64,000 bases of DNA from a phage: sequence record NC_094493.1. The stretch is one strand, 5' to 3'. Each line of letters starts with the position of its first letter. Position 1 is the first letter of the stretch. Both the position numbers and the translations under genes were made by a program. This document shows, one piece after another, positions 3,345 to 64,000 of this stretch. Under the pieces are notes generated by a model. It searched no databases, was not told the DNA's origin, and saw nothing but the letters and a program-made list of their open reading frames with translations.

Positions 3345-4328
3345 TTAACCTTTCACGAAGTGGTTATTAAGCAGTTGTCTGTGCTGAACCCACCCACAAA
3401 AGTTGGCAGACCAGAATTTACCATCACGGTCTTGATGGGTTACACCTTCCTGCCAAGTACTGATGTCTTGTGTGATTTCACATGAAGACAGGTAGTAGTT
3501 TAAACGTTCCATTGCGTTATCGTGATCCATAGGTGTTGCCTGGTGCTCGTAAGGGCTTGCATGAATACGATCCCCACCAATCAATTTTTTAGCCACACTA
3601 TCTGCCTTTTCAAACGTGCTGTCAATATTTCGATAAGATACTTGTGCACAGCAACTAGCACTGATAGACAGAGCTTCTTTAGTATCGAGAATGCAGAGCT
3701 TTCCTTCTGTGTCACGTACAGCGTAGTTAAACTCTCCGTCCAAATAAACGTGCTCTACATATGGGGTGTGCCATTGACCCGGTTTAAGGATTTCAGGAGT
3801 GCTATTCTCAAGAGCCTCCCACATACAATTAGCTAACATCTGAATCGTAGGATCCGCATCGTGCCAGCAACGGAGGTGGAAAAAATTATTCCACTCGGTG
3901 CTTGTTACAACTGTTTTCATGCGCTGGAACGGCTCCACTAAGCGGTTACATACTTGCTTATGGTAACCAGCAAGGGCGAACTTCTCTGCATGCCAAGCGG
4001 CGTTTTTTGCAGCTTCTTTCCAAAACTCTTCAGGAGTTAGCTCCATGTCAGTGTACTCTACACGGATCTTTTGATCGTGTTCCCCACCATCTTCCATTCC
4101 TCGCTTATTTACACCGAAGCGAACTGGCATTGCCGGATTCTCCACAATCTGTTGCAGCATCTTGCCGACAGGTACTGCACGGGAAGACATGGCGTTTCGG
4201 CTGAACACTCGGTGCGTCATAAGCTCTGAGTGAATAATTCGAGGATACTCTAGTTCAAAAGTGGTGATACGCTTACCTTTCTCGGAAATGCTGTCAGCAA
4301 TAATCTTTGCAGTGCACAGTTTTAGCAT
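3345..4328 (-). CDS. ThyX-like (flavin-dependent thymidylate synthase fold) protein, divergent
   Basis: THRVFSRNAMSSR matches the spacing of the ThyX RHRxxSxxxxSxR signature but with Thr in place of the first Arg; later LR...DA...IQ segment also ThyX-like; 327 aa is longer than typical ThyX. Confidence 0.45.
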   Translation of the reverse strand: MLKLCTAKIIADSISEKGKRITTFELEYPRIIHSELMTHRVFSRNAMSSRAVPVGKMLQQIVENPAMPVRFGVNKRGMEDGGEHDQKIRVEYTDMELTPEEFWKEAAKNAAWHAEKFALAGYHKQVCNRLVEPFQRMKTVVTSTEWNNFFHLRCWHDADPTIQMLANCMWEALENSTPEILKPGQWHTPYVEHVYLDGEFNYAVRDTEGKLCILDTKEALSISASCCAQVSYRNIDSTFEKADSVAKKLIGGDRIHASPYEHQATPMDHDNAMERLNYYLSSCEITQDISTWQEGVTHQDRDGKFWSANFCGWVQHRQLLNNHFVKG

Positions 4329-4528
4329 TATTTAGCTCTCCTTGTTTTAATTTTGGAAATTTCGTCTGGGTTTATGTTGGCCTTAAATGCAAGGTATCTG
4401 TTGAACATGTCAGAGCACATATCTTGGGTGATCCTAGAGGCATACACTAGCTTACCTCCTAGATCATACACCTCTAGCCAGTCACCGTATCTGACTACAG
4501 GATCGCCACCTTTAGAACATCTGCCCAT
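4328..4528 (-). CDS. Hypothetical protein (66 aa)
   Basis: Small ORF coupled between ThyX-like and HAD genes. Confidence 0.3.
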   Translation of the reverse strand: MGRCSKGGDPVVRYGDWLEVYDLGGKLVYASRITQDMCSDMFNRYLAFKANINPDEISKIKTRRAK

Positions 4529-4529
4529 T

Positions 4530-5123
4530 TCAAATACCTTCTAAAAACTTTCCTATTTTATACCAGCTATTGGCGGTATAGTCAACACTGACCTTTAACT
4601 CCTCGAATTGCTCATAAGGCGTATCTTTTAGGATTTTAATAACTTCAGGTCGTGAAGCGAATTGGTTAAGGTATTCATGCCTGTCGTCAATTATAACATC
4701 TACAGCCACATTTCCTTTGAAATGTGTGGCGTAGAAGCCGTGACCCTGGGTGTGATCGTCCAGATCCATAAAATCACTGGTCCAACGCTTTAAGAACCTT
4801 GATTTAGATGCAAGGTGACCTTTCTTGCATACCGAGATAAATGCAAGCTTGTGACCACGAGCCACCAAATCTTTCATAACCTCAATAGCCCCCTCTTCAG
4901 GCTTAAGAAAGTCGTAGAGGAATGGGTCACTCCAGAAATCAAAAGGCCCTATGATGTTTTCTTTGGGGCGATCAGGCCAATACTTTGACAGATCGTAATA
5001 CATCAGTCCATTAGAAGGTTTAGCGACTGTCTTACTGGCTGGACCATACAAACGCTCCAACCACTCCCACCATGCTGTTCCTGAATCTACCAGTGTCAAA
5101 TCTACATCAATTCCGATTAACAT
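4530..5123 (-). CDS. HAD-superfamily phosphatase, possibly a deoxyribonucleotidase
   Basis: N-terminal IDVDLTLVD fits HAD motif I (DxDxT). Confidence 0.5.
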   Translation of the reverse strand: MLIGIDVDLTLVDSGTAWWEWLERLYGPASKTVAKPSNGLMYYDLSKYWPDRPKENIIGPFDFWSDPFLYDFLKPEEGAIEVMKDLVARGHKLAFISVCKKGHLASKSRFLKRWTSDFMDLDDHTQGHGFYATHFKGNVAVDVIIDDRHEYLNQFASRPEVIKILKDTPYEQFEELKVSVDYTANSWYKIGKFLEGI

Positions 5124-7234: not shown

Positions 7235-8218
7235 TTAGATTATCTGAATCAGGGTGTTTTTCATCTCTTCTCTGGTACGGATGTTGTTACGATCACGAAC
7301 AACAGATCCACAACCTTCGCAGCGGTATGTTTTAAATGCACTCAGCTGAGTATACGCCAAAGCTTCTTCCTCGTGAAGGTGTTCTCCACCACAGCGTGGG
7401 CAACGAACCTTTGGCTCCTCGTCCTGGTAGTACAATGACATGTTTGGGTGCTGCTTAGCAAACGGGCGAGCCAGCAAATACAAGCCTTCCAGAGACAGGA
7501 TATCACCAACATTATACTCCCGCATCTGTTTAAATGCCTCAAGATCGCCATGGACACACTTGATCCACATTTCAAATGTGTGGTCAATCAGTTTCTGTCG
7601 GGCCAGTTGGAAGTATTTGCATGCATACTCTAAAGTGTTTGCATTCAAACGGAATGCCTTCTTGATCATTTTAAGGGTGTCAACCTCTTTGTAGGGGCTT
7701 GTTGGAGGCAACCCGTGAAATGCAAATCGTTGGTTGGCCCACCCGCAGTCAAAACCTGAATTGTGGGCTACTGCGACATCGCATTTATCCAGATAATACC
7801 ACAAATCCTGAATCAATTCGAGATCATTGTGAATATCCTCATCCCACATTTTGTAATCTGGAAGAGCGCAGTCAACCACACTAGGGCTGTCTAACCACTT
7901 ACCTGCGAAAGTTAGCATATAGGGCATAACTTCAATACCACAGGTTTGAATGTTGGTCTTATAGTGCCCAAAGAACCAGCCGTTTGTTGGGGATGTCTCT
8001 GTATCATACACCCAAACTTTAGCACCTTTGTGCTCTTCAAGGAAGCGCTCCGTTGCTTCTCCTACAATCTCCGACATATTCTCTTGTGCACGTTTAAGCT
8101 GTAGTCGGATCCAGCTCTCACGTGACTCACGGCCTAAAAATTCACGAGCAATTTGTCTATTAGTGTATCCTTGTTGCTTTAGTGTTAAAATTTGCTCAAG
8201 AGTTAACTTTGTCATCAT
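7235..8218 (-). CDS. DEDD-family 3'-5' exonuclease with N-terminal HTH-like region
   Basis: VYDTETS (Exo I) and AHNSGFD (Exo II) motifs. Confidence 0.55.
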   Translation of the reverse strand: MMTKLTLEQILTLKQQGYTNRQIAREFLGRESRESWIRLQLKRAQENMSEIVGEATERFLEEHKGAKVWVYDTETSPTNGWFFGHYKTNIQTCGIEVMPYMLTFAGKWLDSPSVVDCALPDYKMWDEDIHNDLELIQDLWYYLDKCDVAVAHNSGFDCGWANQRFAFHGLPPTSPYKEVDTLKMIKKAFRLNANTLEYACKYFQLARQKLIDHTFEMWIKCVHGDLEAFKQMREYNVGDILSLEGLYLLARPFAKQHPNMSLYYQDEEPKVRCPRCGGEHLHEEEALAYTQLSAFKTYRCEGCGSVVRDRNNIRTREEMKNTLIQII

Positions 8219-8230
8219 CGTTAAGATTCC

Positions 8231-8452
8231 TTAGTAAAACTGAAGAATGTCTTTTAAAGCGAAGTCACGATATTCGCCCTTGTCTACATCGAAGGCACGC
8301 ATCAACCACTGCTCTTCTTTATGATACTCTGTAGAGCCAAACCATAAATTAGGCTCAGTAACGCAGCGATCTGCAACAACACCTTTCCAGTTACGGTATT
8401 TCATCCTGATCAGGACTGAGTCGCAAGGATTGAATACCTTTTTCATCCCCAT
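8231..8452 (-). CDS. Hypothetical protein (73 aa)
   Basis: ORF only. Confidence 0.3.
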   Translation of the reverse strand: MGMKKVFNPCDSVLIRMKYRNWKGVVADRCVTEPNLWFGSTEYHKEEQWLMRAFDVDKGEYRDFALKDILQFY

Positions 8453-8996
8453 AGAAATCTCTCTCCTCAGTTTTCTTTATAAACTCCTGCATGTAGAGCT
8501 CAATAGCCTCATGCTTGGTGCACTCTGGATTAATGACAAGATTGAGATCTGATTCTGCTCGTGCAATAATCGTAGCTTTAGAGCATCTCCTCAAGAACTT
8601 TGTCATATCATCTCTGTAGTTTTTGTGGAGCGGGAAGTCGCTGTAGTCTTTCTCCAAATAGTCAGCCATCCGGCGCAACGCCTCTGATAAACTGCAATCT
8701 GTATACTCGTTACAGTATTTCATCCAGTATTTAAGCACATACCCCTCAAAGGTATTAGTGCATTGAGACAAAACACCCCTGCAACGACCAGTCAGATGAT
8801 CATGATCTAAACAAGGCTTACGAAGTGGCTCGCACAAGATCGGATCAAGACCATCCTGCTCCTCTGACAATTCTTTTCGAAAGTTGGCTATGTCCTTAGA
8901 ATCTTTTAACCACCCGTTATGAACTGGGGCTTTGACAGCTTTCTTTCTTATTTTACGCTTTGCGATAATCCCTCCAGATGAGCCCTGCCTATCCAA
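8391..8996 (-). CDS. Endonuclease VII-like junction-resolving nuclease
   Basis: CLDHDHLTGRCRGVLSQCTNTFEG closely parallels the T4 gp49 HLDHDH...RGLLCNLCNAAEG zinc/active-site block. Confidence 0.65.
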   Translation of the reverse strand: MDRQGSSGGIIAKRKIRKKAVKAPVHNGWLKDSKDIANFRKELSEEQDGLDPILCEPLRKPCLDHDHLTGRCRGVLSQCTNTFEGYVLKYWMKYCNEYTDCSLSEALRRMADYLEKDYSDFPLHKNYRDDMTKFLRRCSKATIIARAESDLNLVINPECTKHEAIELYMQEFIKKTEERDFYGDEKGIQSLRLSPDQDEIP

Positions 8997-9577
8997 TAAG
9001 CATCTGCGAGATCGGCCTTACCTTGTACCAAATTGATCCCGTCTAGGAACCCAGGTTCAGATACTTCGCAGGCCTTAACCATCAACTTTTTATCCATTGT
9101 AACAGGTTTCTTCACAGTATGCTCTTTACCTGTCTTTTTGTCAAGCTTTTTCTTCTCCTCAAAAGCAAGTTCTTCAGGAAGATGACTACGAGCAAACTTT
9201 TTGGCAGTTGTTGGTGTCACTGTGTGGACCTTAAACAGGCCGTCATTTTCACAATCAGCTAAGGCATCCCAAAGCATAATTTCAAGACCGTAAAACAACC
9301 CAGCCAGTTCACGTGTGGCATCCCCGCGTGATCCAAAGGAAAGCCCTTCCATAACCACGGTGTCAACGTGATGCGTGTGGATATAATATCTGACCTGTTT
9401 GCAGATCCAGTCAATACGCTCAGCAGCTGTTGCAAAAGAAACCGTCCCTGGTTTCTTCTCTTTTGCAGATGAGCTTTGAGTTCGTAACACAACCTTATGA
9501 ACAGGCTTTCCATCGTCCCATACAACGCAAGCTGTGTGTGTCAACGACTGGTCTATGGATAATAGACGCTCTCTCAT
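8948..9577 (-). CDS. RuvC/RNase H-fold nuclease-like protein
   Basis: SIDQSLTHTAC and VVMEGLSFGS resemble the Asp and Glu strands of RuvC-like resolvases; weak. Confidence 0.4.
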   Translation of the reverse strand: MRERLLSIDQSLTHTACVVWDDGKPVHKVVLRTQSSSAKEKKPGTVSFATAAERIDWICKQVRYYIHTHHVDTVVMEGLSFGSRGDATRELAGLFYGLEIMLWDALADCENDGLFKVHTVTPTTAKKFARSHLPEELAFEEKKKLDKKTGKEHTVKKPVTMDKKLMVKACEVSEPGFLDGINLVQGKADLADAYWIGRAHLEGLSQSVK

Positions 9578-32373: not shown

Positions 32374-32379
32374 AAATTG

Positions 32380-32408
32380 TTGCTTTTGATGTATCTTTGT
32401 GGTAAAAT
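32380..32408 (+). promoter_or_regulatory. Sigma70-type promoter (TTGCTT, 17 bp, TAAAAT with upstream TG)
   Basis: Read directly from sequence. Confidence 0.4.
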
Positions 32409-32426
32409 ACATTAGTGAGGGATATA

Positions 32427-35923: not shown

Positions 35924-37774
35924 GTGGCTAGAAAACTAAGATCAAGCACAGAGGAGTTCATTGCTAAGGCTAGGGAAGTTCATGGGGATAAGTATTCTTA
36001 CGAAAAAACTGTGTACACAGGTTGTACAAAACCTCTGATTGTAACGTGCAGCTTGCACGGTGACTTCAAAATAACTCCGCACAAACACATCTCTGGTAAG
36101 CAAGGTTGCCCGGAGTGTGGTAAGCTGGTTCGGGCAGCGAAAAAGAATAAGGGCGCTCTGTTTGTAGAAAGAGCTAAAGCTATCCACGGGGATAAATACG
36201 ACTACTCCCTTGTGAATTACAAAACTTGCAAAGATCCTGTGGAAATCATCTGTAATAAATGTGGTAAACATTTTCTGCAAACTCCTGACAACCACATTAA
36301 CACCAAAAAAGGTTGCCCCGTTTGTGGTAAGGAGAGGTCAAAAGAGAAATTGGTGGCTAGAGGAAAAGAACGTAGAGGAAAACCGAATCTTAGGCACAGA
36401 TCTTCAACAGAAGAGTTTTTAAAGAAAGTTTTCAATAAATTCCCTCAGAACAGGGATTTGTTTGATTACTCACACGTTAAGTATACAACTTGTGAGGAAA
36501 AAGTAGAGATTCATTGTAAGGTTTGTGGGTACGTTATGCATCAAAAACCTTCAGACCATCTACAAGGGAAAGGGTGTAAGCGCTGTGCTGGAATGGCTAC
36601 TTCTGCGAAAAAAGTGCCAAGTTTTCAAGAGGTGGCAGAAAGAGCCAAAGCTGTACATGGCGACAAATACGAATATTTTGAAGATTCTTATGTGAATGCC
36701 TCAACACCTATGAAAATACGTCACAAAGAGTGTGGTAACATCTTCATGCAGCGTCCGGAGTTCCATTATGGTAAAGGCCAGGGTTGTCCTCGTTGTTGCC
36801 ATAATCAGTCAACTGGCGAGAAAGATGTGCTGTCATTCATTAAAGGTATATATAGTGGTGTTGTTGAAGAGAATGCGTGGGTTTTGGAAAACTTCAAATA
36901 TCCGTCTAAGAAAAAGATGGAATTGGATATTTACCTCCCAGAGTTAAAGCTTGCTGTAGAATACAATGGTGTCTTCTGGCACTCAGTTGATCGTAAAGGG
37001 AAAGGATATCATATCCAGAAGAGAAAGGCTTGTGAGCAACAAGGAATTCGCATGCTATCTATTTGGGAATGTGACTGGCATGATTCTCGTAAAAGGCCTA
37101 TCATTGAGAGATATCTTAAAAACGCTCTTGGTGTTAAAGATGAGAAGACAGTGTATGCAAGGAAGTGCACGATAAAAGATGTGGACAATAAAACTTACCG
37201 AGATTTTATGGATAAGAACCACATTCAAGGGTATGCAACTGCTAAAGAAGTGAAGAAGGGACTTTTTACAGCCGACGGTGAACTGGTAGCCTGTATGAGT
37301 TTTAAAATACTGAAAAACAAGGATCAAAAGGTAACACCTTTCGTCATGTGGGACATGGTAAGATATGCCACAAGCTGTAACGTTCCTGGTGGACGTAGCA
37401 AGCTGTTTAAACATATCCAAAAGGAGTTTAAGATGGATCATGTTCAATCTTTTCTTGATAGAGACTACTTTACGGGCGTGTCCTATAAAGAGGAAGATGG
37501 ATGGGTTCTGGCAGAGGACGATCAGGTGTCTATCAGTTTCTGGAGTTACCGAGGGGGTAGGATGTCAAGGCAAGCGTGGTGGAAGTCTAACATTCCAGAA
37601 ACATTGAAACGTCTTGGGTTGGACGAATCCTTGTATGATCCGGAGAAAACACAAGAGTGGAATGCCAAAAATGCAGGATGTCACATTTTGGAGAACAGTG
37701 GTAACTCTCGCTTCGAGTGGCACAGCGAGGAAGGTAAAAATGACCCTGTGTATTTAAACTGGTTGAAAGGTTAA
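35924..37774 (+). CDS. Repeated zinc-ribbon protein with C-terminal Vsr-like nuclease domain; putative free-standing homing endonuclease
   Basis: Four to five ~50-aa repeats (HGDKY...C...HG...GCPxCG); C-terminal LAVEYNGVFWH resembles Vsr/DUF559-type nucleases; GTG start. Confidence 0.45.
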   Translation: MARKLRSSTEEFIAKAREVHGDKYSYEKTVYTGCTKPLIVTCSLHGDFKITPHKHISGKQGCPECGKLVRAAKKNKGALFVERAKAIHGDKYDYSLVNYKTCKDPVEIICNKCGKHFLQTPDNHINTKKGCPVCGKERSKEKLVARGKERRGKPNLRHRSSTEEFLKKVFNKFPQNRDLFDYSHVKYTTCEEKVEIHCKVCGYVMHQKPSDHLQGKGCKRCAGMATSAKKVPSFQEVAERAKAVHGDKYEYFEDSYVNASTPMKIRHKECGNIFMQRPEFHYGKGQGCPRCCHNQSTGEKDVLSFIKGIYSGVVEENAWVLENFKYPSKKKMELDIYLPELKLAVEYNGVFWHSVDRKGKGYHIQKRKACEQQGIRMLSIWECDWHDSRKRPIIERYLKNALGVKDEKTVYARKCTIKDVDNKTYRDFMDKNHIQGYATAKEVKKGLFTADGELVACMSFKILKNKDQKVTPFVMWDMVRYATSCNVPGGRSKLFKHIQKEFKMDHVQSFLDRDYFTGVSYKEEDGWVLAEDDQVSISFWSYRGGRMSRQAWWKSNIPETLKRLGLDESLYDPEKTQEWNAKNAGCHILENSGNSRFEWHSEEGKNDPVYLNWLKG

Positions 37775-37775
37775 A

Positions 37776-37804
37776 TTGACAATGCACCATAATCATGGTA
37801 AAAT
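37776..37804 (+). promoter_or_regulatory. Sigma70-type promoter (TTGACA, 17 bp, TAAAAT with upstream TG)
   Basis: Read directly from sequence. Confidence 0.5.
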
Positions 37805-37847
37805 ACACAAATATGGTGCACAACATGACTAATAAGGATGCTATAAA

Positions 37848-48077: not shown

Positions 48078-51000
48078 ATGGCTGATATTAAAGTTGTCAG
48101 AATTGAATCTCTTCCTGCCACTACCGCAGTGACAGAGGATGATTACCTGGTTGTTCAACAACCAGACCTGACTCGTCGTGTAAAAATTGGCGATGTTGTC
48201 CATGTGGATGGGACTGTTTCTCATGTAATCTCCTTTAAGGAAGGTGGTAAGTTAAACGGCCCAATGGATTTTGCCTACTTCGAAGAGGAAGACCTCTACC
48301 TGCGTTGGAAAGGCGAATTTCCACACACTGTTCCTGCACTATCTTCACCGTACTCCGATGGTGGGATTACTGACGCTGCATGGATGGTATATACTGACCC
48401 GTCCCTAAGGGAGGAGCTGGAATCTACCATTGGCGCATCTATGATCATGACAGCCGAAGGGCAGTCTGTCCAGGATGTAATGGATGTTACTGTTCAGACA
48501 GCTAACGATGCTAAAGCCCTTGCACAGCGTGTAGATTTTGGTACAGTGCACACTGTAGGTGATGTTATCCACCTTGATAACTTTGTTGGCCCTGCAGTTA
48601 TTGAAGAGGGAAGAACCACCAACTACCCTTCTGTAGCAGCTGGTGAAAAATTTCTGAACGGTGTGGTATCTCGTCGTGATACTACAACTGTTGATGGCAT
48701 TTTCCGTGGCGCTACCTCCGGAGCCATGTATACCATCGCAGTAACCAACGGTGTAGCGACAACAAAAAGAATAGCACTTCGTGATGAATTTAAACGCCTA
48801 GAGGCAAACAACCCAACAAGAACAGTTATCCGTGCTGGAGATGATTTAAACACGGCAGGGTACTTGCAGCTTGACGCAACAGGCCGTTGGGGTATGTGGA
48901 ACCAACAAACAGCCTCGTGGCAACCTCTTGCTATAGAGCAAGGCGGCACAGGGGCTAGAGATGCCGCTGGAGTCCGTATCAATATCGGTGCTTTCTATAA
49001 GCAACGTGCAGCCCTTGAGCCAAATTTCAATATCAATAACTTGACTGGTAATCAGGATGGTGTATACTACCAGCCGATGACTGCTTATGCAACTGAGGCA
49101 AATGGTTACCCTGCAGGTTCTGGTGCTGGTCACCTGATTGTTTGGCAGAACAATGCTAACGGCGGTACAGGTTGTCGTCAGGAATACTATCCATTCTCTA
49201 ACGTAGATGTTTGGTATTTAAGAACCTATCAGGCCAACACAAATCAGTGGACTGCATGGCAGCCGATGGTCAGACCTCGTAACGATGATACCTTTAGAGC
49301 GCACATCGGTCTCGGGTCTAGAAACTCCCCTACCTTTGGGCACCTTTACCTGTCTCAAAGTTCTGCTGATGTTAAGTCAGCATCAGGTATTGTTAACGGG
49401 GACAAATACAGCGCTGACGGTGTCCTTGAGCATGGATATAGGATCTACTCTGAGGTAAGAAACGACAATAAGGCTTGGTTGACAATCCACCTGCACAAAG
49501 GTGCAAAAGGATCTGAAACTCATAGATATTTAGGTTTCCGCGAAGATGGCGTGTTAGACTGCCCTAAATACATGCAGGTTGGGGATCTTACTGGTCAGCT
49601 GACAAACTGGGGTCTTGGAGAATGGATCCGTAGTTCAGGGGCAGAAAGAGGCTTCTGGGGGTCCAAGAAAGCCGCCAAGATGGTTGTCTGGGATGGTGGG
49701 ATGGACGAATCCGGTAACGGCACTCTGGAATGGGGTGTTTATAACAACCGGAAGGCCAAGTGGGAACCTTTACCTCAAGCCGCAGGTGGTACTGGGGCTA
49801 CAACTTTAGCAGATGCTCAGAATCTGTTCAAAGTTCCTATAGCAGCAGGTGTGAAAGACTTCTTAACACTGCCAAGAACCGCAGGGATGGAAGATGGGAA
49901 ATACTACCCGATCATCGTTAGAACAGATCCGTATTACGCCCCTTCGACAGGTACAGATATTACCATAGTCACCAGGTCTTCATCTGGAAATGACCCTATG
50001 AACTGTGCCACCCTGCAGTGTCACTATAGAACTGGCGGCTGGACGGACAGGGGAGACTCTTTCTACGGGGTAGTAAATTTCTACCAGAATGAAAAAGCAC
50101 TTCTTGGGATGGTTGCTCCAGCAAGGGGTAAACAAGAGTATGTTGCTTTCTATGCAGAGGCTCGTGCTTTCCCTGTCAGCATATACGCAAGTAGAAATGT
50201 TGTCGAAGTGTTTACCAGAGAGCAAGATTACCAGGTTGGGGCTGTAACAGCCAATCAGGATGGGGTTAAGTTCGTTGCACCTCTTCAGTCAGCAGATTTG
50301 AATCTCGCTATTCTTGGAGATAACAACACCAATACCAGACCTATTGTTGACTTCAAAGGTACTTCAGGGTTCTACACTGGCGGCGGCACACAGTGGCACT
50401 ATATAGGCACTGCTGAACGCTATGCTGTGATGAGCAAAATGAATATGCCTAAAGTCGAGCTATGGGCAGACGGTATTGACTACCTTTGCCCTGGTAGTCA
50501 GACCACTCGAAAAGCACTGTTCTCTAATGCAGGGTTCCAGGCTGCGTCGGAAGGAACAGAGGATCTGATCAACAACACCTTTACCTCTAAATGTGGTAAT
50601 GGTGCAAGACTGCAAGGACAGGCAGAGTTCAGATCTACTCCAGAAGCTGCTCAAGTTATTGTTCGTGATGTTGTAGGCACAGCTCATAGATTCTACAACT
50701 TCAACAAAGATGGCACTTTCTCAGCTCCGGGCGGTTTTGTATGCCACACGGGTGCAGACTGGAACAACCAGTTTGGGCCTAACAACCCGTCAAAAATAAT
50801 AGCTGGTAATGTTAACGGCCCACAAGATACCATGGTTGTAGGCGGGTTATCTGTAGGATTCTCGGGAAACTACGCTTTCCAGATTGCTGGCAGACAAAGT
50901 AACTTATACACCAGGTCTATAGAAGGTGGTAATCACCATCCCTGGAATAAGGCTATGCAACACAGGGGTCAAGGTCTTGGTTCTTCAGACCTTAACACCT

Positions 51001-51896
51001 ATCACGGATTGTGGGAAGGTATTTACCATCAGCCTGCAAATAATGATGCAACATATGATCGTCATTATCCCGTAAATGAGGCCGGAACACTTATTGTGTT
51101 GCAAAATAACGCCAATAACGGTAATGGGTGTGTTCAAGAATATATTACCTACCATGGCGATAGATTTACACGTTATGGGAATATGGTGAAACAGGTCTTC
51201 ACTTGGGGCCCGTGGACCCAAACAGGTGGTAATGGTGTTAGCTTCAGATATGGAGGAACAACTCCCGAAGGGGAAATACCGACCTCAGAGTTAAAGGTAT
51301 ATATTTCTGGAAGCCATGTTACTAATAACGGTGGCAACATGCCTGCGAATAGCGCTCATATGCACTATTGGGGCAACGGCAGCACAGGGGATCGCCCAAA
51401 CGTGTTAGAGTTTAAGGTTCTTGACGAGTCTCAAGCAAATTGGGTATGGCATTGCGGTACCTTGCCAGATAAATCAAGATATTTTGCTGTCAACGGTACG
51501 GTAGAATGTACTACTGTTAGCCAAAGTTCCGATAGGGACCTGAAGGATAACATAGAGGTCATACCTAACGCTCTGGAAGCAATTAGAAAAATGAAAGGTT
51601 ATACCTACACCTTGAAAGAGAATGGTATGCCTTATGCAGGCGTGATTGCTCAAGAGGTTATGGAAGCATTGCCAGAGGCAGTAGGATCTTTCGTAAAAAG
51701 GAAGGAAATAGAAGGTCCTACTCAAGACGGTATTCCTCTGATGACCGAGGAAAGGTTCTATAACGTTGACTACGCAGCTGTAACAGGCTTGCTTGTCCAG
51801 GTTTGCAGGGAACAGGACGATAAAATAACCGCCCTTGAGGAGCAGGTTAAAAAATTGACAGAGGTTGTTACTGGATTGCAAGAGAAACTGAAGTAA
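48078..51896 (+). CDS. Long tail fibre with C-terminal intramolecular chaperone (peptidase S74-like) domain
   Basis: 1272 aa; C-terminal SSDRDLKDNIEV...GYTYTLKENG matches the autoproteolytic chaperone signature. Confidence 0.65.
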   Translation: MADIKVVRIESLPATTAVTEDDYLVVQQPDLTRRVKIGDVVHVDGTVSHVISFKEGGKLNGPMDFAYFEEEDLYLRWKGEFPHTVPALSSPYSDGGITDAAWMVYTDPSLREELESTIGASMIMTAEGQSVQDVMDVTVQTANDAKALAQRVDFGTVHTVGDVIHLDNFVGPAVIEEGRTTNYPSVAAGEKFLNGVVSRRDTTTVDGIFRGATSGAMYTIAVTNGVATTKRIALRDEFKRLEANNPTRTVIRAGDDLNTAGYLQLDATGRWGMWNQQTASWQPLAIEQGGTGARDAAGVRINIGAFYKQRAALEPNFNINNLTGNQDGVYYQPMTAYATEANGYPAGSGAGHLIVWQNNANGGTGCRQEYYPFSNVDVWYLRTYQANTNQWTAWQPMVRPRNDDTFRAHIGLGSRNSPTFGHLYLSQSSADVKSASGIVNGDKYSADGVLEHGYRIYSEVRNDNKAWLTIHLHKGAKGSETHRYLGFREDGVLDCPKYMQVGDLTGQLTNWGLGEWIRSSGAERGFWGSKKAAKMVVWDGGMDESGNGTLEWGVYNNRKAKWEPLPQAAGGTGATTLADAQNLFKVPIAAGVKDFLTLPRTAGMEDGKYYPIIVRTDPYYAPSTGTDITIVTRSSSGNDPMNCATLQCHYRTGGWTDRGDSFYGVVNFYQNEKALLGMVAPARGKQEYVAFYAEARAFPVSIYASRNVVEVFTREQDYQVGAVTANQDGVKFVAPLQSADLNLAILGDNNTNTRPIVDFKGTSGFYTGGGTQWHYIGTAERYAVMSKMNMPKVELWADGIDYLCPGSQTTRKALFSNAGFQAASEGTEDLINNTFTSKCGNGARLQGQAEFRSTPEAAQVIVRDVVGTAHRFYNFNKDGTFSAPGGFVCHTGADWNNQFGPNNPSKIIAGNVNGPQDTMVVGGLSVGFSGNYAFQIAGRQSNLYTRSIEGGNHHPWNKAMQHRGQGLGSSDLNTYHGLWEGIYHQPANNDATYDRHYPVNEAGTLIVLQNNANNGNGCVQEYITYHGDRFTRYGNMVKQVFTWGPWTQTGGNGVSFRYGGTTPEGEIPTSELKVYISGSHVTNNGGNMPANSAHMHYWGNGSTGDRPNVLEFKVLDESQANWVWHCGTLPDKSRYFAVNGTVECTTVSQSSDRDLKDNIEVIPNALEAIRKMKGYTYTLKENGMPYAGVIAQEVMEALPEAVGSFVKRKEIEGPTQDGIPLMTEERFYNVDYAAVTGLLVQVCREQDDKITALEEQVKKLTEVVTGLQEKLK

Positions 51897-51902
51897 CTGT
51901 TT

Positions 51903-51929
51903 TGCCCTCGCTTCGGCGGGGGCTTTTTG
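51903..51929 (+). terminator. Rho-independent terminator
   Basis: GCCCTCGC-TTCG-GCGGGGGC followed by TTTTTG. Confidence 0.6.
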
Positions 51930-51935
51930 TTTGTA

Positions 51936-51964
51936 TTGCGTATTAACTCAAAATCTGGTAAAAT
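51936..51964 (+). promoter_or_regulatory. Sigma70-type promoter (TTGCGT, 17 bp, TAAAAT with upstream TG)
   Basis: Read directly from sequence. Confidence 0.45.
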
Positions 51965-51995
51965 AACTATCATGATTGTTTAACCTGGAGGCACA

Positions 51996-57403: not shown

Positions 57404-57411
57404 CCTTTAAA

Positions 57412-57437
57412 GCCCCGCTTCGGCGGGGTTTATTTTT
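57412..57437 (+). terminator. Rho-independent terminator
   Basis: GCCCCGC-TTCG-GCGGGGT followed by TTATTTTT. Confidence 0.6.
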
Positions 57438-57446
57438 ATGCTCAGA

Positions 57447-57475
57447 TTGACTATTGTTACAAAATTTGGTAAAAT
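57447..57475 (+). promoter_or_regulatory. Sigma70-type promoter (TTGACT, 17 bp, TAAAAT with upstream TG)
   Basis: Read directly from sequence. Confidence 0.5.
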
Positions 57476-57508
57476 ACCTTGTAGAGATTTTCATACCGGA
57501 GGAGTGAC

Positions 57509-58999
57509 GTGGCTAAGTATGGATTGACAGAGGCTGGTTTCGTTATACCAACCCTAAATGACCTAATCGTTGAAACTAAGCAAAGCCTGATCCGTGCTTT
57601 TGGCGAAAACTTCAACGTACAGAGTAACTCCGTTGCAGATAAGCTGACCACTATCTTCAACGAGCGAGAGTATCAACTTATTCTTATGGCAGCATCTGTA
57701 TACGCATCACAGACGCTGTATGGGGCAGAAGGTATTTACCTAGATGAACTTCTTGGAAGACAGGGTATTTACCGAAGAGGCCGTTCTAAATCATCAGGTA
57801 CCTGCCAGTTGACGATCAACACAACTGTGCCGTACAATATGATTTACGATTCCAAAACTTATACGCTGGATAGTGGCAACTTTGTTCTTAGCAATGATGT
57901 GCAAGTGGCAGGGAATCTTATTGCTCACAGAATAAATGCTCCAGACCTAAGGATTGGTAAATACAACTTTCAAATTACCAACCAGACAGATGGAAGTATC
58001 AAAACAAAAAGTCTGGTTTTAACAGATAAGGCTCTGGACTCTTCTGATCTGCCAAGCTTTTACGGAGAGATTAAGCAATTCATTGTAGATAATACAACTC
58101 TGTTAAACGACGATTTGATTCAGATCGATATGTTGACAGGAACGTTGTGGATAGGATACAATTCGAATCTTGATCAAGTTGGACTTAATAGTAGGGTAGA
58201 TTTTAGAGTATCCCCGATTGTAGGGGAAAGAACTATCACCCTAGATGTTATCGCCAACGAGGCTGGTGAGCTGTCAAGAGAGGCAGAAACCGTGACAACA
58301 ATGTCACCTACTCCCAGTGGATTTATCAAGCTTACCAACCGAGAAAGATTCAATGAGGGCAGGGATGTTGAGAAAGACTCAGAGTATCGCTTAAGAGCTT
58401 CCAGCACAAAACAGTTAACATCTAAGGCTACCCGTCCTGCAATCCTTAGCGCTGTAAGCGAGGTGAAAGGTGTTGAGAAAGTGAGAGTGTTCTCTAACAA
58501 TACCGATAAAACTGATGCTAAAGGTATACCTCCTTACAAGTTCCAAGTGGTTGTGTTTGGTGGTGCAACGGAGGACATTTGCCAAGCGCTTTACCAAACT
58601 ATCGCCTGTACGAACAGGACTTATGGTAATATTTTCTACGATGTCACTACATCTGACGGTCAAACTGAAAGAATTTATTACTCCAAGGCAAATACCTACC
58701 GCCTGGATGTAAGAATTACCTACTCTGGTGCTGCGCTTTCCACAACCGAAAAAGATGCCATTGTAGAAGCTCTTTTACAGGTTGTTAACGGACTGGATGT
58801 TGCAGATACGTTGTACAATATCCAATTGGTTGGTGCTGCATCCGCTGCTGTGTCAATAGGCAGATTTAATAGACTGGTAATTCAAGTTAAACCTGTGGGG
58901 GCTTCTGATGAAGCTTACACTACAAACGATATTGTTGCAAACATGACCGAGGTGTTTGACCTCGATGAAAGTAATATAACTTTCCAACAAACTATTTAA
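57509..58999 (+). CDS. Putative baseplate protein (496 aa)
   Basis: GTG start with GGAGGAG RBS; position in tail module. Confidence 0.35.
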   Translation: MAKYGLTEAGFVIPTLNDLIVETKQSLIRAFGENFNVQSNSVADKLTTIFNEREYQLILMAASVYASQTLYGAEGIYLDELLGRQGIYRRGRSKSSGTCQLTINTTVPYNMIYDSKTYTLDSGNFVLSNDVQVAGNLIAHRINAPDLRIGKYNFQITNQTDGSIKTKSLVLTDKALDSSDLPSFYGEIKQFIVDNTTLLNDDLIQIDMLTGTLWIGYNSNLDQVGLNSRVDFRVSPIVGERTITLDVIANEAGELSREAETVTTMSPTPSGFIKLTNRERFNEGRDVEKDSEYRLRASSTKQLTSKATRPAILSAVSEVKGVEKVRVFSNNTDKTDAKGIPPYKFQVVVFGGATEDICQALYQTIACTNRTYGNIFYDVTTSDGQTERIYYSKANTYRLDVRITYSGAALSTTEKDAIVEALLQVVNGLDVADTLYNIQLVGAASAAVSIGRFNRLVIQVKPVGASDEAYTTNDIVANMTEVFDLDESNITFQQTI

Positions 59000-59010
59000 G
59001 GCGGCGAGAT

Positions 59011-59697
59011 ATGGCAGAGATTAAGTCGGATGTTAACCACATCCACACTCTGCCAGATTTTGTTCAGGGGGGTCTTGACTACCTTCCTGGAGATTTTCTG
59101 GCTGAGAAGGTTAATTTGGTCACATTCTTAACCGTGTACCTTAAAAGGTTGGAGGATGTTGATAAGATGCTGGTAGGTTTGGCTGAAGGAAGATTGCTTA
59201 ACAATGCCAGCGGAAGATACCTTGATGAAGTTGGTAATCAACTTGGTATTCTTAGGAATGGACTTTCAGATGCTGATTTTCGTGCCACACTAATTATTCA
59301 GCAGGCTGCAGCATCAAGGGGCGGGACTCGCGAAGATGTCATCTCCACCTTGCGACAATTGTTCGGAAGAGACAATTTCGATACGTGGAAAGGAGACAAC
59401 TTCAGGTTTGACATAAATATTAGAAAAACTTGCTTTGACATATTGCAGTCCATCGATCAGATCTTAGATATGCTACCATTACCTTGTCATTTGCGTCTTA
59501 CAGAATCGCAAGGGCAAGCTTTTGGTTTTGAAGGGGACTCTACAGCTCTTGGCTTCGGATCAGTGTGGGAAGAAAACCAATTCGGAGTTGGTGGGCTGGC
59601 TACTTTGCTATATGTTCCTGACGTAAGACCTGATTGGGACACCACAACCATTTATTGTGAAAGTATTACAGTAAACGCAACTAGACAGGAGGGTTAA
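59011..59697 (+). CDS. Putative baseplate protein (228 aa)
   Basis: ORF coupled to neighbours. Confidence 0.3.
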   Translation: MAEIKSDVNHIHTLPDFVQGGLDYLPGDFLAEKVNLVTFLTVYLKRLEDVDKMLVGLAEGRLLNNASGRYLDEVGNQLGILRNGLSDADFRATLIIQQAAASRGGTREDVISTLRQLFGRDNFDTWKGDNFRFDINIRKTCFDILQSIDQILDMLPLPCHLRLTESQGQAFGFEGDSTALGFGSVWEENQFGVGGLATLLYVPDVRPDWDTTTIYCESITVNATRQEG

Positions 59698-61769
59698 TGG
59701 CAACAGCTGTTTTTAAACCTTACCGTGATTACTCTACAATGGCTGCACAGTTTCATTACCGAACAGTTCAGGATACTGCCGTTCCTGGTAGGGATTATAA
59801 TCATGCTGAGGGCGATGTAACTATCCCAATTGGGGCAACCAGTATTGAGATCCCCGTGGAAATTGTTGACAAATTACCCAACAGGTTACCAAGAAGCTTC
59901 TTTATGGAGTTTTCATCAAAATCTCAAGGAGTGATGATTGGGACACAAAGGGCGAAATGTACAATAGTTTCAGATGAGAATCTTGACAGGATAGCTTGGG
60001 ATACTGTTGAGGAGAGAATGTTTCACCCAAGATATTGGGTTACAACCACTCAGCAGACTGAAAGTACCTGTATTGTTGCAGATAACAACTGTTGTATTAA
60101 CCGTTTAGTGTCAAGAACATATGGAGGTATGGCCGGGTGCATTTGGGAAACAGTTGATAAGTATGACCATTTCGGTATTGGGTTTGATGATCACTATGAG
60201 ATGAGAAACACCAAGCTTTGGTTCAGAATGTCAATAACCAATGCCAGCAACTTCTCCACCCCTGAAAAGATGATTATGACTGTAGACCTTGTTGATGGCA
60301 CAATCATCTATGTTCCTTTAGCTCAATATGCTGCCAGCATCTCAGAGGATAAGAATGTTGCAGAGATTCATATTGATTTCGAGGACTGCGTCGGGATGGA
60401 TCAGAACAACAACATGATGGGTGTTGATCCTCGCCAGGTGAGAAGGATTTTAATACCGCTTATGCCTAAAGATTGGGTAAGTAATAGCACAGACCCGAGA
60501 ACGGAAAATGTAGAGTGTGAGTTGCGCCTAGATCTGCTTCAGCCAGACACGGGCTGGAAAATGATGCAACTTAACAATATTCAGGTTAAAGAGCACGACG
60601 TTGGGATCTGCACCGCATATGACGATATGTGGAACGTATCTCCTTTAAGGGTGTTGAACAATATCAAGCGTCTGGGCTATACCGGAACCATAAACCATTA
60701 TGTTGGTATGAGTCATTATTATGACTACACATGGTCAGGAACCCAATGGTCTATAAACAGAACAGGAGCGCTAAACGCTGCAGCTTATAAATGGCATGAT
60801 GATTTTATGTACAATGCCAAACGACATAACTTCGACGTTATGCAGTCTGTAAGTTTTGAGCTTTACAGCGATGCCTGTCCGTTGGAATGGACCCAAAGAG
60901 ACTGGAACGATAACTACGCTAAAACAGGGTATACACCTTGTAGCTACCTCCTGTCTCCAACCATTGAAGAGGGTATGAATTTCCTTACTGCAGTATTTAA
61001 GAATTTTGCATCAGCCGCTATGAGAAACAACCTGCCAGTGATTATGCAGGTTGGTGAACCATGGTGGTGGTACAATACCGATACTCGTAGACCTTGTATT
61101 TATGATTACCCTACAAAGCAGGCGTTTTATGATGAGACAGGTGAGTATGCATTAGATATTGGGACTATTGACGATCCTAAAACTGGCGGTGTTTACGACA
61201 AGTATGTAGCATTTTGTCGTGGTAAGCTTGGCGCTCGTATTGCGGCTATTTCAAAGGCAATAAAGGCACACGCTGCATCAGCTCAGATGACAGCTCTGCT
61301 GTTTTTCCCAACCATTATGGAAACCGAGCTTACGCAAAAGCTGAACCTTGCTGACCAATATAAAAAAGAAGCAGGTGCTCTTGATTTCTTCTGCACCGAG
61401 TGCTACGATTGGGTAATGCAGGGGGGTATTGAAAAGGCAAAAGAGTCTGTAAACATACCTATCGTTAAGTTAGGTTGGCAACCGTCTGAAATACAATACC
61501 TTGCAGGGTTCGTTCCTAGTAAAGAGCTTGCTCCGGTATATGGCTACGACCCAACTAGGAATTACCAAGAATTTTTATGGAGATGTATTTGCGGAAACAT
61601 GGCAACTATAGAGTATAGATACCCTGAGGTAAAACAGTATGTGTGGGCATACCCGCAAGTAATGTCTGACAGCATCACTGTTACCGCTAGAGATTCTACC
61701 GTGCTTCATATGGGGCAGGTTGCTCTGAAAGGGTATGTAGAGGATGTTGTCCCGCCAGACTTCTCATAA
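59697..61769 (+). CDS. Hypothetical tail protein (690 aa)
   Basis: Large ORF upstream of the tail-fibre gene. Confidence 0.3.
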   Translation: MATAVFKPYRDYSTMAAQFHYRTVQDTAVPGRDYNHAEGDVTIPIGATSIEIPVEIVDKLPNRLPRSFFMEFSSKSQGVMIGTQRAKCTIVSDENLDRIAWDTVEERMFHPRYWVTTTQQTESTCIVADNNCCINRLVSRTYGGMAGCIWETVDKYDHFGIGFDDHYEMRNTKLWFRMSITNASNFSTPEKMIMTVDLVDGTIIYVPLAQYAASISEDKNVAEIHIDFEDCVGMDQNNNMMGVDPRQVRRILIPLMPKDWVSNSTDPRTENVECELRLDLLQPDTGWKMMQLNNIQVKEHDVGICTAYDDMWNVSPLRVLNNIKRLGYTGTINHYVGMSHYYDYTWSGTQWSINRTGALNAAAYKWHDDFMYNAKRHNFDVMQSVSFELYSDACPLEWTQRDWNDNYAKTGYTPCSYLLSPTIEEGMNFLTAVFKNFASAAMRNNLPVIMQVGEPWWWYNTDTRRPCIYDYPTKQAFYDETGEYALDIGTIDDPKTGGVYDKYVAFCRGKLGARIAAISKAIKAHAASAQMTALLFFPTIMETELTQKLNLADQYKKEAGALDFFCTECYDWVMQGGIEKAKESVNIPIVKLGWQPSEIQYLAGFVPSKELAPVYGYDPTRNYQEFLWRCICGNMATIEYRYPEVKQYVWAYPQVMSDSITVTARDSTVLHMGQVALKGYVEDVVPPDFS

Positions 61770-61781
61770 TCAGGAGATAAA

Positions 61782-62822
61782 ATGTCAAAACCTAGTTTTC
61801 CATTAGAGATTTGGGCAGAGGAGGATCAGGTTCTGCCTAACACCCACAGACAGAACAGGCTACGCCCGATTGATGATTTGTGGAGAAAAGGTTGGGATCT
61901 TGGTCAAAAGCCCTCATGTGAAGAACTTAACTATATTTTCAATATGCTCGGAACTTGGGCAAAATACATTGCTGACGAGCAGATCCCCGCTCAAGAAGGC
62001 CGTTATCTGGTACGTGATAATAACTTGAGTGATCTTTTGAACATTCCTGTTGCCCGTAGAAACCTTGGGATTATTACTAAGGAAGAGGCAGACGCCAGGT
62101 ATGTAAAAGTTACAGGTGATACAATGACAGGCCCATTGGGTTTGCAACGTATCAACTTTAAAGCTGCCGAGACAGATAAGGCTTGGATAGAGACAACTAT
62201 TGGCCCAGATAAGACAACTCTCGACTTTGGGTTAAGTGATAATACCGGGTCGTTTGATGATGGTGGTACATCTACAGTAGATGCGTTTCGTTGGAGATTC
62301 CAGCCAACTCAGCCGGATATTAATCCAGAGTTCACTTTGATGTACCTTAACGCGATCACGGCTAACCGTGCGCTGTTGAAAGTGGTCGGCAATGTTGAAG
62401 TTGTCGATAACATGAGGTGTAATAACCTTACTATCAGCAATACAGCAACATTCACCAACTGTAATGTGGCTAGTCAGTTGACGACTGGGTCAGTGTATGT
62501 TAATGGTGGTGCAAGTTGTGACAGTATGGTTGTAAGAAGTCAGCACTGTGTTGTCGGTAACAGAAATGTGGTGCGCTCTGTGAATGGAGTGACGGCTAAC
62601 GGTAACGGTGATGTAACAATCACTATCCCGCAGACAGGTGTGCAAGACATCAGAATCGGTGCAAGACTTGTTGACGGCGTTTCTGAATCTCCAATTCGCA
62701 ACGGCTACGTTGTCACAGGCTGGCATTTCGGTGACAAAAAAGAGATGCGTGGTTCAACCTACTGGGCAGGACCTTTACAAAAACTTGTAAATGGTCAATG
62801 GATCACTGTTAATTATGCATAG
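61782..62822 (+). CDS. Tail fibre protein
   Basis: LSDLLNIPVARRNLGI motif common in fibre N-terminal regions; followed by an assembly chaperone. Confidence 0.5.
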   Translation: MSKPSFPLEIWAEEDQVLPNTHRQNRLRPIDDLWRKGWDLGQKPSCEELNYIFNMLGTWAKYIADEQIPAQEGRYLVRDNNLSDLLNIPVARRNLGIITKEEADARYVKVTGDTMTGPLGLQRINFKAAETDKAWIETTIGPDKTTLDFGLSDNTGSFDDGGTSTVDAFRWRFQPTQPDINPEFTLMYLNAITANRALLKVVGNVEVVDNMRCNNLTISNTATFTNCNVASQLTTGSVYVNGGASCDSMVVRSQHCVVGNRNVVRSVNGVTANGNGDVTITIPQTGVQDIRIGARLVDGVSESPIRNGYVVTGWHFGDKKEMRGSTYWAGPLQKLVNGQWITVNYA

Positions 62823-62836
62823 ATCGGAGGACTAGC

Positions 62837-63421
62837 ATGAAAATACTTCAAGAGTTTAAACTTTACCAACCGGGATCTGGCGAATACCACGCCAACAAGG
62901 AAACCAAGGAGCTGACCCCCCAAGAGGTTGAGGATTACACCGCATACACTGGGTATTTTTTACGTAATGATGATGGAGATTGGTATGTGCAGTCACGAAC
63001 ATTACGACAAGAAAATCCGGGTTGTATCTTCCTACTTGTTGACGAGAAGGGAATTCTTAAGACATCTACAGAAGAACCTGATGCCTTATGGCCTGCTCCA
63101 GGTCTTCGTGTGGTTATCGCCAAAAAAGAAGAGGTACCAGAAAACATTATGCTTCACCACGACGCTTTGCGTTTAGTTGGTGATGAATTTGTCACAGATA
63201 ATGAATTCTTTGTTCAACAGGCAGAGGGTGTCATAGAGACAGAACTTGCTTGGGCTACTGCTAGAATTGGTGCCTATCAAGACATGATTGACCTTGAATA
63301 TGATCTTACTGATGACCAGAAACGTAACATCAGAGATTTGAAAATGTACAGGGTAAAACTTCTTGAAATAGATACATCTAAAGCCCCTGACATTTTCTTC
63401 CCGGAGCGACCTACCCTCTAA
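62837..63421 (+). CDS. Tail fibre assembly protein (Tfa-like)
   Basis: C-terminal YQDMIDLEYDL...YRVKLLEIDTSKAPDIFFPERP resembles Tfa chaperones. Confidence 0.5.
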   Translation: MKILQEFKLYQPGSGEYHANKETKELTPQEVEDYTAYTGYFLRNDDGDWYVQSRTLRQENPGCIFLLVDEKGILKTSTEEPDALWPAPGLRVVIAKKEEVPENIMLHHDALRLVGDEFVTDNEFFVQQAEGVIETELAWATARIGAYQDMIDLEYDLTDDQKRNIRDLKMYRVKLLEIDTSKAPDIFFPERPTL

Positions 63422-63432
63422 GAGGAGGTGTT

Positions 63433-63747
63433 GTGGAGTTGGATTTGGCGGCATTGTACGGTATCTGCATGGGTACCGTTGTCCCGATCTGTGTATGGGC
63501 TTTCAACCAGTGGCACACCAAATGGAAAGGCATTTCCAAAAGGTTGGATGAACTGGAGAAAGACCTCATCTTAGTGAAAAACAGTATGGTTACAAAAGAT
63601 AAACTTGATTCCGTTATCGAGACCCGGTTAAGCAAGCTAGAGGCCGATATTAACGACCTTAAGCAGGATGTCAGGACAGATGTCTCCGGTATCCGAGCTG
63701 ATGTACAAAAGATTTTGCACATGCTCGTAGAGCATAGTAAAAGGTAA
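63433..63747 (+). CDS. Hypothetical membrane/coiled-coil protein (104 aa)
   Basis: Hydrophobic N-terminus then coiled-coil-like region; GTG start. Confidence 0.3.
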   Translation: MELDLAALYGICMGTVVPICVWAFNQWHTKWKGISKRLDELEKDLILVKNSMVTKDKLDSVIETRLSKLEADINDLKQDVRTDVSGIRADVQKILHMLVEHSKR

Positions 63748-63777
63748 ACAAAGGTCAGAACGGAAAGGACTCCGTTC

Positions 63778-63806
63778 TTGCATTTTGTTCTCTAAAGTGT
63801 TAAAAT
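63778..63806 (+). promoter_or_regulatory. Sigma70-type promoter (TTGCAT, 17 bp, TAAAAT)
   Basis: Read directly from sequence, ahead of the second fibre gene. Confidence 0.4.
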
Positions 63807-63836
63807 AGTCCTAAGGAATTTTCTCAGGAGAACGCG

Positions 63837-64000
63837 ATGACTAAACCAGTTATCCCTCTTGATATTTGGGCCAATCAGGATGTTGTGCTTGAAAATACGG
63901 GAGAGTTGAATAAGTCTCAACCAAAAAAAGAAGAGAGATTGAAAGGTTGGGATATGACACAAAGAGTGGCATGTGAAGTTGTTAACTTTGAACTTCACAC
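63837..64000 (+). CDS. Second tail fibre paralogue, N-terminal fragment (runs off window end)
   Basis: MTKPVIPLDIWANQDVVLENT...LKGWDM parallels MSKPSFPLEIWAEEDQVLPNT...RKGWDL of the 61782 gene. Confidence 0.45.
   Translation, partial: MTKPVIPLDIWANQDVVLENTGELNKSQPKKEERLKGWDMTQRVACEVVNFELH

Follow-up and report, generated by a model that had tools for sequence, protein, structure and literature searches.

Why would a phage carry two genes for short tail fibres beside a single gene for a fibre chaperone? The question is raised by the end of a 64,000-nucleotide (nt) stretch of phage DNA (sequence record NC_094493.1, hereafter the window), where a complete short tail fibre (STF) gene, STF1, is followed by a chaperone gene, a gene for a small membrane-like protein, and the start of a second fibre gene, STF2. 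An earlier note on this DNA had taken the pair for a typical host-range cassette with swapped distal parts. Our results showed that the two genes are full-length paralogues at a locus whose conservation is among the highest in the tail. The explanation we favour, with a probability of about 0.7, is that they encode two trimeric short fibres that would share one chaperone, be expressed from two transcription units, and serve in terminal binding to the lipopolysaccharide (LPS) core.

The segment 59000-64000 of the window was compared with phage records by DNA search. It matched 117 records, 115 of them across most of the query with 95-99.4% identity. All near-full matches were rV5-like coliphages of the genus Vequintavirus, and the top match was O157 typing phage 4 (99.4%). 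Over 5 kb, rV5 (98.8%), JES2013, and O157 typing phage 4 were 98.8-99.4% identical to the window, with equal gene order and gene sizes. Because of this near-identity and the equal layout in annotated records, the window genes can be equated with rV5 gp36, gp35, gp34, gp33, gp32, gp31, and gp30. The locus is the short-tail-fibre locus of a Vequintavirus, an rV5-like myovirus coliphage, and contains the following features (aa, amino acids):

61782..62822, + strand: STF1 (short tail fibre paralogue 1, rV5 gp33), 346 aa
62837..63421, + strand: Tfa chaperone (rV5 gp32), 194 aa; Pfam Caudo_TAP, phrog_136
63433..63747, + strand: 104-aa protein with one transmembrane segment (rV5 gp31), GTG start; phrog_5345
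63757..63778, + strand: hairpin, 8-bp stem, loop AAGGAC, directly 3' of the gp31 stop codon
63778..63807, + strand: promoter P030; -35 TTGCAT at 63778-63783, 17-nt spacer, extended -10 TGTTAAAATA at 63798-63807
63826..63830, + strand: Shine-Dalgarno sequence AGGAG of the STF2 gene, from reading the sequence
63837..64000, + strand: STF2 (short tail fibre paralogue 2, rV5 gp30), first 54 codons only, cut by the window end

The gene layout of the earlier note stands: the fibre gene that it had placed at 61782 is complete, the Tfa-like chaperone and the small membrane-like open reading frame (ORF) lie between the fibres, and the partial gene that it had opened at 63837 is the start of a second fibre.

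The part of STF2 inside the window agreed with rV5, JES2013, and O157 typing phage 4 at 163/164 nt and 54/54 aa, and the complete gene in these near-identical phages has 1,044 nt and encodes 347 aa. Aligned end to end, the complete proteins STF1 and STF2 were 42% identical over 346 aa (BLASTP E 7e-93), with 38% identity in residues 1-110, 44% in 111-255, and 48% in 256-346. The most similar block was the last ~15 residues, which are near-identical (QKLVNGQWIT); the least similar were alignment columns ~205-260 and 295-330, with 27% identity around columns 301-330, and the two shafts are set apart by indels. A profile built from the N-terminal domain matched the 54-aa STF2 fragment with E 4e-29, and within the window and a 29-kb reference locus it matched just the STF1 and STF2 genes. 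The earlier note had the fibres share a conserved N-terminus and then diverge. N-terminal similarity is indeed far above chance, but the similarity runs over the whole length, and the complete second gene does encode a fibre-like distal domain. The genes are collinear duplicates in which the N-terminal third is the least similar, and swapped distal parts are not supported.

At the DNA level, the two genes share just two notable repeats: 62 nt at the 3' end, with 82% identity, and a stretch of 28 nt. BLAST had split the match to rV5 and other phages into two pieces that spanned 5,866 bases, as if these phages carried an insertion of 866 bp. This reading was rejected: the rV5 layout is unchanged, and the surplus piece comes from the paralogous 3' end (62 nt) of gp30. 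In all sampled rows with at least 95% identity each record held two STF places, and overall there were 116 more places than records. Relatives outside the genus Vequintavirus had one STF place per record.

How old is the duplication? Metagenomic contigs provided two more lineages with two STFs, L009-L011 (76% DNA identity) and L008/L012/L013 (70%). In neighbour-joining trees of residues 1-255, STF1 and STF2 formed sister clades, each with the same three lineages, and the single-copy fibres of Avunavirus and Seunavirus fell outside both. This topology indicates one duplication before the three lineages split. STF2 is the faster-evolving copy: compared with the single-copy outgroups it was 38-51% identical, and STF1 54-56%.

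The single-copy phages also show what the second fibre displaced. In Av-05 (Avunavirus) and in the Seunavirus-like phages R7 and GAP31, the order is one STF, Tfa, the 104-aa protein, a 157-aa polytopic membrane protein, an 87-89-aa protein, and a fibre of ~585 aa, with a 4-nt overlap between the genes for the 104-aa and 157-aa proteins. The 157-aa gene was located as follows:

L004:6949-7422: 157-aa polytopic membrane protein of Av-05
L005:6997-7470: 157-aa polytopic membrane protein of R7
L007:6961-7434: 157-aa polytopic membrane protein of GAP31

In Vequintavirus, the slot of this gene holds the hairpin, the promoter, and STF2. Phage records with the 157-aa protein number 107 and cover at least seven genera; none of the two-STF loci examined has it, and the ~115 genomes of the genus Vequintavirus cannot be fitted into the hit counts. 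Its carriers include Avunavirus, Seunavirus, phiTE- and CR-type phages, Septuagintavirus, and phages of Klebsiella, Erwinia, and other hosts.

The conservation of the pair was then set against that of the lateral fibre. Identity to STF1 reached 99% or more in 93 records and lay between 95% and 99% in another 22; for STF2, 115 records had at least 95%. With the STF2 tip as the query (89 aa; tblastn against 50,697 phage records), the tip was at least 90% identical in all 115 records, and no donor above ~43% identity was found outside the genus. In contrast, the lateral fibre gene at 48078-51896 (gp41) was at least 99% identical in only 3 records, with 37 at 95-99%, 45 at 90-95%, and 36 at 80-90%. 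The lateral fibre allele of O157 typing phage 4 (L002:127-4898) encodes 1,479 aa and is followed by a 110-aa ORF, versus 1,272 aa in the window. Since the lateral allele has been replaced despite 99.4% identity in the short-fibre region, the real host-range variation of the window lies in the lateral fibre gene. The locus has been described as free of allelic variation in the BASEL collection (PMC8594841). A search of the 6-kb locus gave no flanking inverted repeats, its sole inverted pair being 19 nt with 79% complementarity, and no invertase is annotated at the locus. Comparison across related phages therefore goes against the proposal of a host-range cassette: the short-fibre locus is among the most conserved tail parts.

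STF1 matched phrog_4465 (E 1e-171), and PDB searches resolved three parts. Residues 1-118 matched the phiTE short tail fibre (9cuy_c; E 1.4e-19 as a single sequence, 2.5e-25 as a profile). Residues 72-124, a collar motif, matched the short tail fiber gp92 (9zd7; E 4e-21), and residues 284-344 matched residues 438-502 of Mu gpS (5yvq_A; phmmer E 1.7e-6, profile E 1.6e-10). By homology, each of the two fibres is composed of an N-terminal docking domain of ~70-110 aa, a collar/shaft region, and a Mu-gpS-like C-terminal tip. Pfam and NCBIfam gave no significant match for STF1, STF2, gp29, or the 157-aa membrane protein.

Relatives of the fibre were sought exhaustively among 1.84 billion representative proteins, and 334 were found, 21 of them with E 1e-30 or better. 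About 60 of the best 150 matched only residues 1 to 60-135, always at their own N-terminus. Many others matched only the collar motif, repeated within very large fibre proteins. Outside the genus Vequintavirus, some matches to STF2 covered its full length (~23-40% identity), and at the low end only its N-terminus was matched. The combination of one N-terminal module with varied distal parts therefore characterizes the wider family rather than these two genes.

In phiTE, fibre residues 3-92 form the joint that binds Wedge 1 (PMC11972413), and the gene two places upstream of STF1 (59011-59697) encodes a homologue of Wedge 1. By homology with the phiTE joint, both fibre N-termini would dock onto the baseplate at Wedge 1. 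The phi92 protein gp147, or fibre III, forms six trimers on the wedge and has been proposed to bind irreversibly (PMC13450770). Fibre III and the phiTE short tail fibre (gp236) share the homologous N-terminal docking domain and stand as six downward-pointing trimers on the wedge; unlike STF1 and STF2, each is single copy, and the distal part in phiTE is a coiled coil with Ig-like domains, not a Mu-type tip.

In Mu, the C-terminal tip of gpS is homologous to that of the present fibres, and its chaperone gpU has its counterpart in the Caudo_TAP protein encoded directly downstream of STF1. By inverting its G segment, Mu switches between two tips that each have a chaperone of their own (S'/U'), whereas here two complete genes are expressed together, with one chaperone and no invertible segment. 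T4 uses gp57A in place of a Caudo_TAP protein. Its short fibre gp12, which binds the LPS core and commits the phage to contraction, is a functional analogue; no gp12 chain was retrieved from the PDB at E up to 1 (phmmer) or 0.1 (profile). HHpred similarity to gp12 has been reported for gp30 and gp33 (PMC3606486). The analogy with Mu, T4 gp12, and fibre III of phi92 suggests that the last step of adsorption, irreversible attachment to the LPS core that sets off contraction, would fall to the two fibres.

The chaperone gp32 passed the gathering score of Pfam Caudo_TAP (PF02413; E 8.4e-12) and matched phrog_136 (tail fibre assembly; E 2e-36); a phmmer search of gp32 against the PDB gave one spurious match only. 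Its gene starts 15 nt after the STF1 stop codon and is the sole chaperone gene of the locus, so STF2 has none of its own. Across eight genomes, tip identity correlated with identity of the Tfa C-terminus (r = 0.91). Between Salmonella phage R7 (L005) and Cronobacter phage GAP31 (L007), identity falls from 76% over the fibre body to 40% over the tip and 17% over the C-terminus of Tfa, which is a genuine swap of a tip-plus-chaperone module between closely related phages. The correlation and this discordance indicate that tip and chaperone travel together. The single gp32, encoded after STF1, would most likely fold the tips of both fibres; the extreme C-terminus common to the paralogues and the co-variation of tip and chaperone in the family support this rather than prove it.

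The tips behave differently in different lineages. In both the rV5 and the L009 lineage the STF2 tip is derived, with 43% identity to the STF1 tip, whereas between these two lineages it is 93% identical. In the sister clade L008/L012/L013, which has a single Tfa, the last 58 aa of both paralogues are 88-95% identical (genes at L008:5913-6953 and 8001-9065; L012:1921-2961 and 4001-5056; L013:1924-2964 and 4001-5065). The codon differences between these tips are 12-23 synonymous and only 3-7 non-synonymous, and substitutions co-vary within a genome, with S, P, and E in L012 where L008 has G, A, and K. The excess of synonymous differences and the co-variation within genomes indicate purifying selection with occasional gene conversion, that is, concerted evolution of the tips in this clade. 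In the rV5 lineage, STF1 and STF2 could plausibly bind two core variants, because there the loops that immediately precede the shared C-terminus are not alike in the two tips. The published receptor-screen papers gave nothing specific to gp30 or gp33.

The spacer between gp31 and STF2 has 89 nt. In P030, the TAAAAT hexamer lies at 63801-63806 and the TG of the extended -10 at 63798-63799. The hairpin at 63757-63778 (RNA fold -17.5 kcal/mol, z -4.1) was flagged as terminator-like, and its last base, 63778, is the first base of the -35 hexamer. A consensus promoter scan did not list the TTGCAT promoter, whose -35 fits just 3/6 bases; its support comes from phylogenetic footprinting and from a motif family. 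The motif TGKTAAAATA occurs at exactly five sites in the window, against an expectation of 0.3 per strand; each site is on the coding strand, 30-45 nt 5' of an ORF. All five have TAAAAT at 17-nt spacing and fit TTGNNN-N14-TGKTAAAATA:

32376-32409, coding strand: rV5 P056, -35 TTGCTT, motif at 32400
37772-37805, coding strand: rV5 P051, -35 TTGACA, motif at 37796
51932-51965, coding strand: rV5 P040, -35 TTGCGT, motif at 51956
57443-57476, coding strand: rV5 P036, -35 TTGACT, motif at 57467
63774-63807, coding strand: rV5 P030, -35 TTGCAT, motif at 63798

TTG at the exact -35 position and a 17-nt spacer at all five sites identify them as extended -10 promoters of the sigma-70 type. The family punctuates the late structural operon, and three of the five promoters are directly preceded by hairpins (~51905-51930, 57410-57431, and 63757-63778).

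The footprint comprised seven sequences from three lineages with 70-77% DNA identity. Invariant in all seven were TTGCATTTT, TGYTAAAATA, both hexamers, their 17-nt spacing, and the loop AAGGA; the spacer and the stem vary. The hairpin and the TTGCAT/TAAAAT promoter of the earlier note are therefore correct in their hexamers and conserved across lineages. Five of the eight stem pairs have changed on both sides across lineages, and the covariation score was 0.417 versus 0.213 in shuffles (0/500 reached it), above all slid controls. With few sequences, these compensatory changes are suggestive, not proof. The hairpin probably acts as an intrinsic terminator, though a leaky one, at the end of the upstream transcription unit.

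P036 would start the transcription unit that contains the first fibre, and STF1, Tfa, and gp31 would form the end of that unit. The conserved hairpin would attenuate transcription, and the overlapping P030 would restart it for STF2, gp29, and the 581-aa gp28 fibre. In the annotated relatives, STF2 is followed by an 88-aa protein, then by the 581-aa fibre, and then by a protein of ~1,880 aa with Ig-like domains.

Much of this locus has been described before, for phages 99% identical to the window, and the paralogy, the virion detection, and the promoter were published in 2013. Kropinski et al. (2013, Virol J 10:76; PMC3606486) reported 42.3% identity between gp30 and gp33, detected gp30, gp32, and gp33 by mass spectrometry of rV5 virions, and suggested that two LPS chemotypes may be recognized. 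Their rV5 gp33, gp32, gp31, and gp30 with P030 are the same locus, with gene sizes of 346, 194, 104, and 347 aa, the same intergenic sequence, and few substitutions. The string of the putative late promoter P030 in their Table S4C, TTGTTCTCTAAAGTGTTAAAATAGTCCTAAGGAATTT, is exactly window 63786-63822. They classed P030 as a T4-late-like motif, in contrast to the sigma-70-type extended -10 assigned here, and the hairpin is not in the rV5 terminator list. Maffei et al. (2021; BASEL, S5C/D Fig; PMC8594841) described two paralogous STFs with one chaperone, homologous to Mu GpS/GpU, and gave LPS outer-core glucose as the terminal receptor. Nothing substantive differs from their description, to which we add the age of the duplication, the displaced gene, and the tip behaviour in the sister clade. 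Together with the co-variation of tip and chaperone and the class and conservation of the promoter, these additions are incremental.

Several observations weigh against parts of the favoured explanation. The N-terminal docking domains are only 38% identical, so STF1 and STF2 may not share one Wedge 1 site, and single-copy relatives have only six such sites (PMC13450770). The STF2 tip of the rV5 lineage is strongly derived, 43% identical to that of STF1 over residues 290-346, so the case for a shared chaperone leans on the common last ~15 residues. Both paralogues carry the same tip in the sister clade, and two receptor specificities are therefore not a general reason for keeping two copies. 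The T-tract of the hairpin is interrupted, which, with its absence from the rV5 terminators, means that termination may be weak or absent. An AlphaFold2 monomer of STF1 (9-sequence alignment) had a mean predicted local distance difference test score (pLDDT) of 35.5 and was unusable.

The alternative that survives best, although we consider it doubtful, is architectural subfunctionalisation. STF1 would sit on Wedge 1, STF2 would dock elsewhere or onto the gp28 fibre, and the duplication would serve geometry or signal transmission. The N-terminal domains split early (38-40%) and were then stable, with 75-87% identity between lineages for STF1 and 62-80% for STF2, and STF2 has moved further from the single-copy outgroups than STF1. 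STF2 would lie in one transcription unit with gp29 and gp28, and the phiTE fibres contact each other (PMC11972413). It also came with its own terminator and promoter, replacing a 157-aa protein that every Vequintavirinae genus examined outside Vequintavirus has kept. L008/L012/L013 keeps both copies under purifying selection although the tips are nearly identical, partly by gene conversion. However, the STF2 N-terminus still matches the same docking-domain profile with E 2.5e-38, so the same site is possible, and the tips do differ in the rV5 lineage. That the two short fibres are architecturally distinct elements, with different docking positions or partners and one chaperone, and not receptor variants at one site, is thus a tentative proposal that we hold to be rather unlikely. 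If true, the baseplate fibre arrangement of Vequintavirus would be unlike that of phi92 or phiTE.

Considerably less probable is an explanation by dosage or timing, with STF2 as a redundant copy whose promoter boosts or re-times fibre supply, or with STF1/STF2 heterotrimers. It draws on the conserved STF2 promoter behind an attenuating hairpin, on the identical extreme C-terminus, where trimerisation of Mu-type fibres nucleates, and on the identical tips of the sister clade. Against redundancy argues a 58% divergence that has long been maintained with each copy strongly conserved, and the shaft indels would disfavour regular heterotrimers. The host-range cassette, a shared baseplate-binding N-terminus with exchanged distal receptor modules that vary between related phages, can appeal to the divergent tip region ahead of the C-terminus in the rV5 lineage, to the joint exchange of tip and Tfa in Seunavirus-like phages, and to the many distal parts fused to the N-terminal domain across genera, but it is very improbable and already largely refuted by the conservation data, given the full-length collinear homology, the ~115 conserved genomes beside a replaceable lateral fibre, and the lack of a tip donor, flanking repeats, and an annotated invertase.

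Upstream of STF1, genes run on the + strand through 57.5-64 kb with short gaps or none:

57410-57431 and 57447-57475, + strand: terminator hairpin, then promoter TTGACT-17-TAAAAT with extended -10, rV5 P036 (rV5 Table S4)
57509..58999, + strand: baseplate wedge 2 protein, rV5 gp36 homologue, 496 aa; Pfam Baseplate_J, phiTE Wedge 2 (PDB; E 1.7e-158), phi92 gp145
59011..59697, + strand: baseplate wedge 1 protein, rV5 gp35 homologue, 228 aa; PDB 9mjn/9cuy Wedge 1 protein (E 6e-67), phi92 gp146
59697..61769, + strand: 690-aa virion protein, rV5 gp34; Calx-beta, NCTSP_N, and TIM-barrel_NCTSP domains; adjoins STF1 upstream

Mass-spectrometry evidence for gp34 is given in Table S3 of the rV5 paper (PMC3606486). 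This protein joins Calx-beta to the N-terminal and TIM-barrel domains of "non-contractile tail sheath" proteins, and it matched Gp64 (PDB 9lc0; E 3e-24). It is absent at the equivalent position in the Seunavirus-like R7 and GAP31, where a protein of similar size (~712 aa) is encoded upstream of the wedge genes.

The gp31 protein has a single hydrophobic segment (residues ~3-25), continues into a heptad-rich tail predicted to form a coiled coil, and is exactly 104 aa long in all genera examined; it had no significant Pfam match and no NCBIfam match. It looks like a membrane-anchored coiled-coil protein whose gene comes right after that of the chaperone. It might conceivably help to assemble fibres at the membrane, though no result of this analysis speaks for that. 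A holin or spanin role, considered for small membrane proteins, was set aside; the putative holin of rV5 is annotated elsewhere (gp129).

Between 16 and 21 GenBank records of the MG0656xx series, named "Campylobacter phage" with Campylobacter jejuni as host, were ~99% identical to rV5-like coliphages over 59000-64000. Their host label is probably wrong or due to contamination.

These results correct the location of host range in rV5-like phages, which are used widely in biocontrol and therapy work on E. coli O157. The paired short fibres form the invariant end of the adsorption apparatus, the end that meets the terminal receptor; strain specificity is to be sought, or engineered, not in them but in the large lateral fibre genes. 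The comparative data frame the contrast between the two copies as one of lineage: the tips are different in rV5 and the same in its sister clade.

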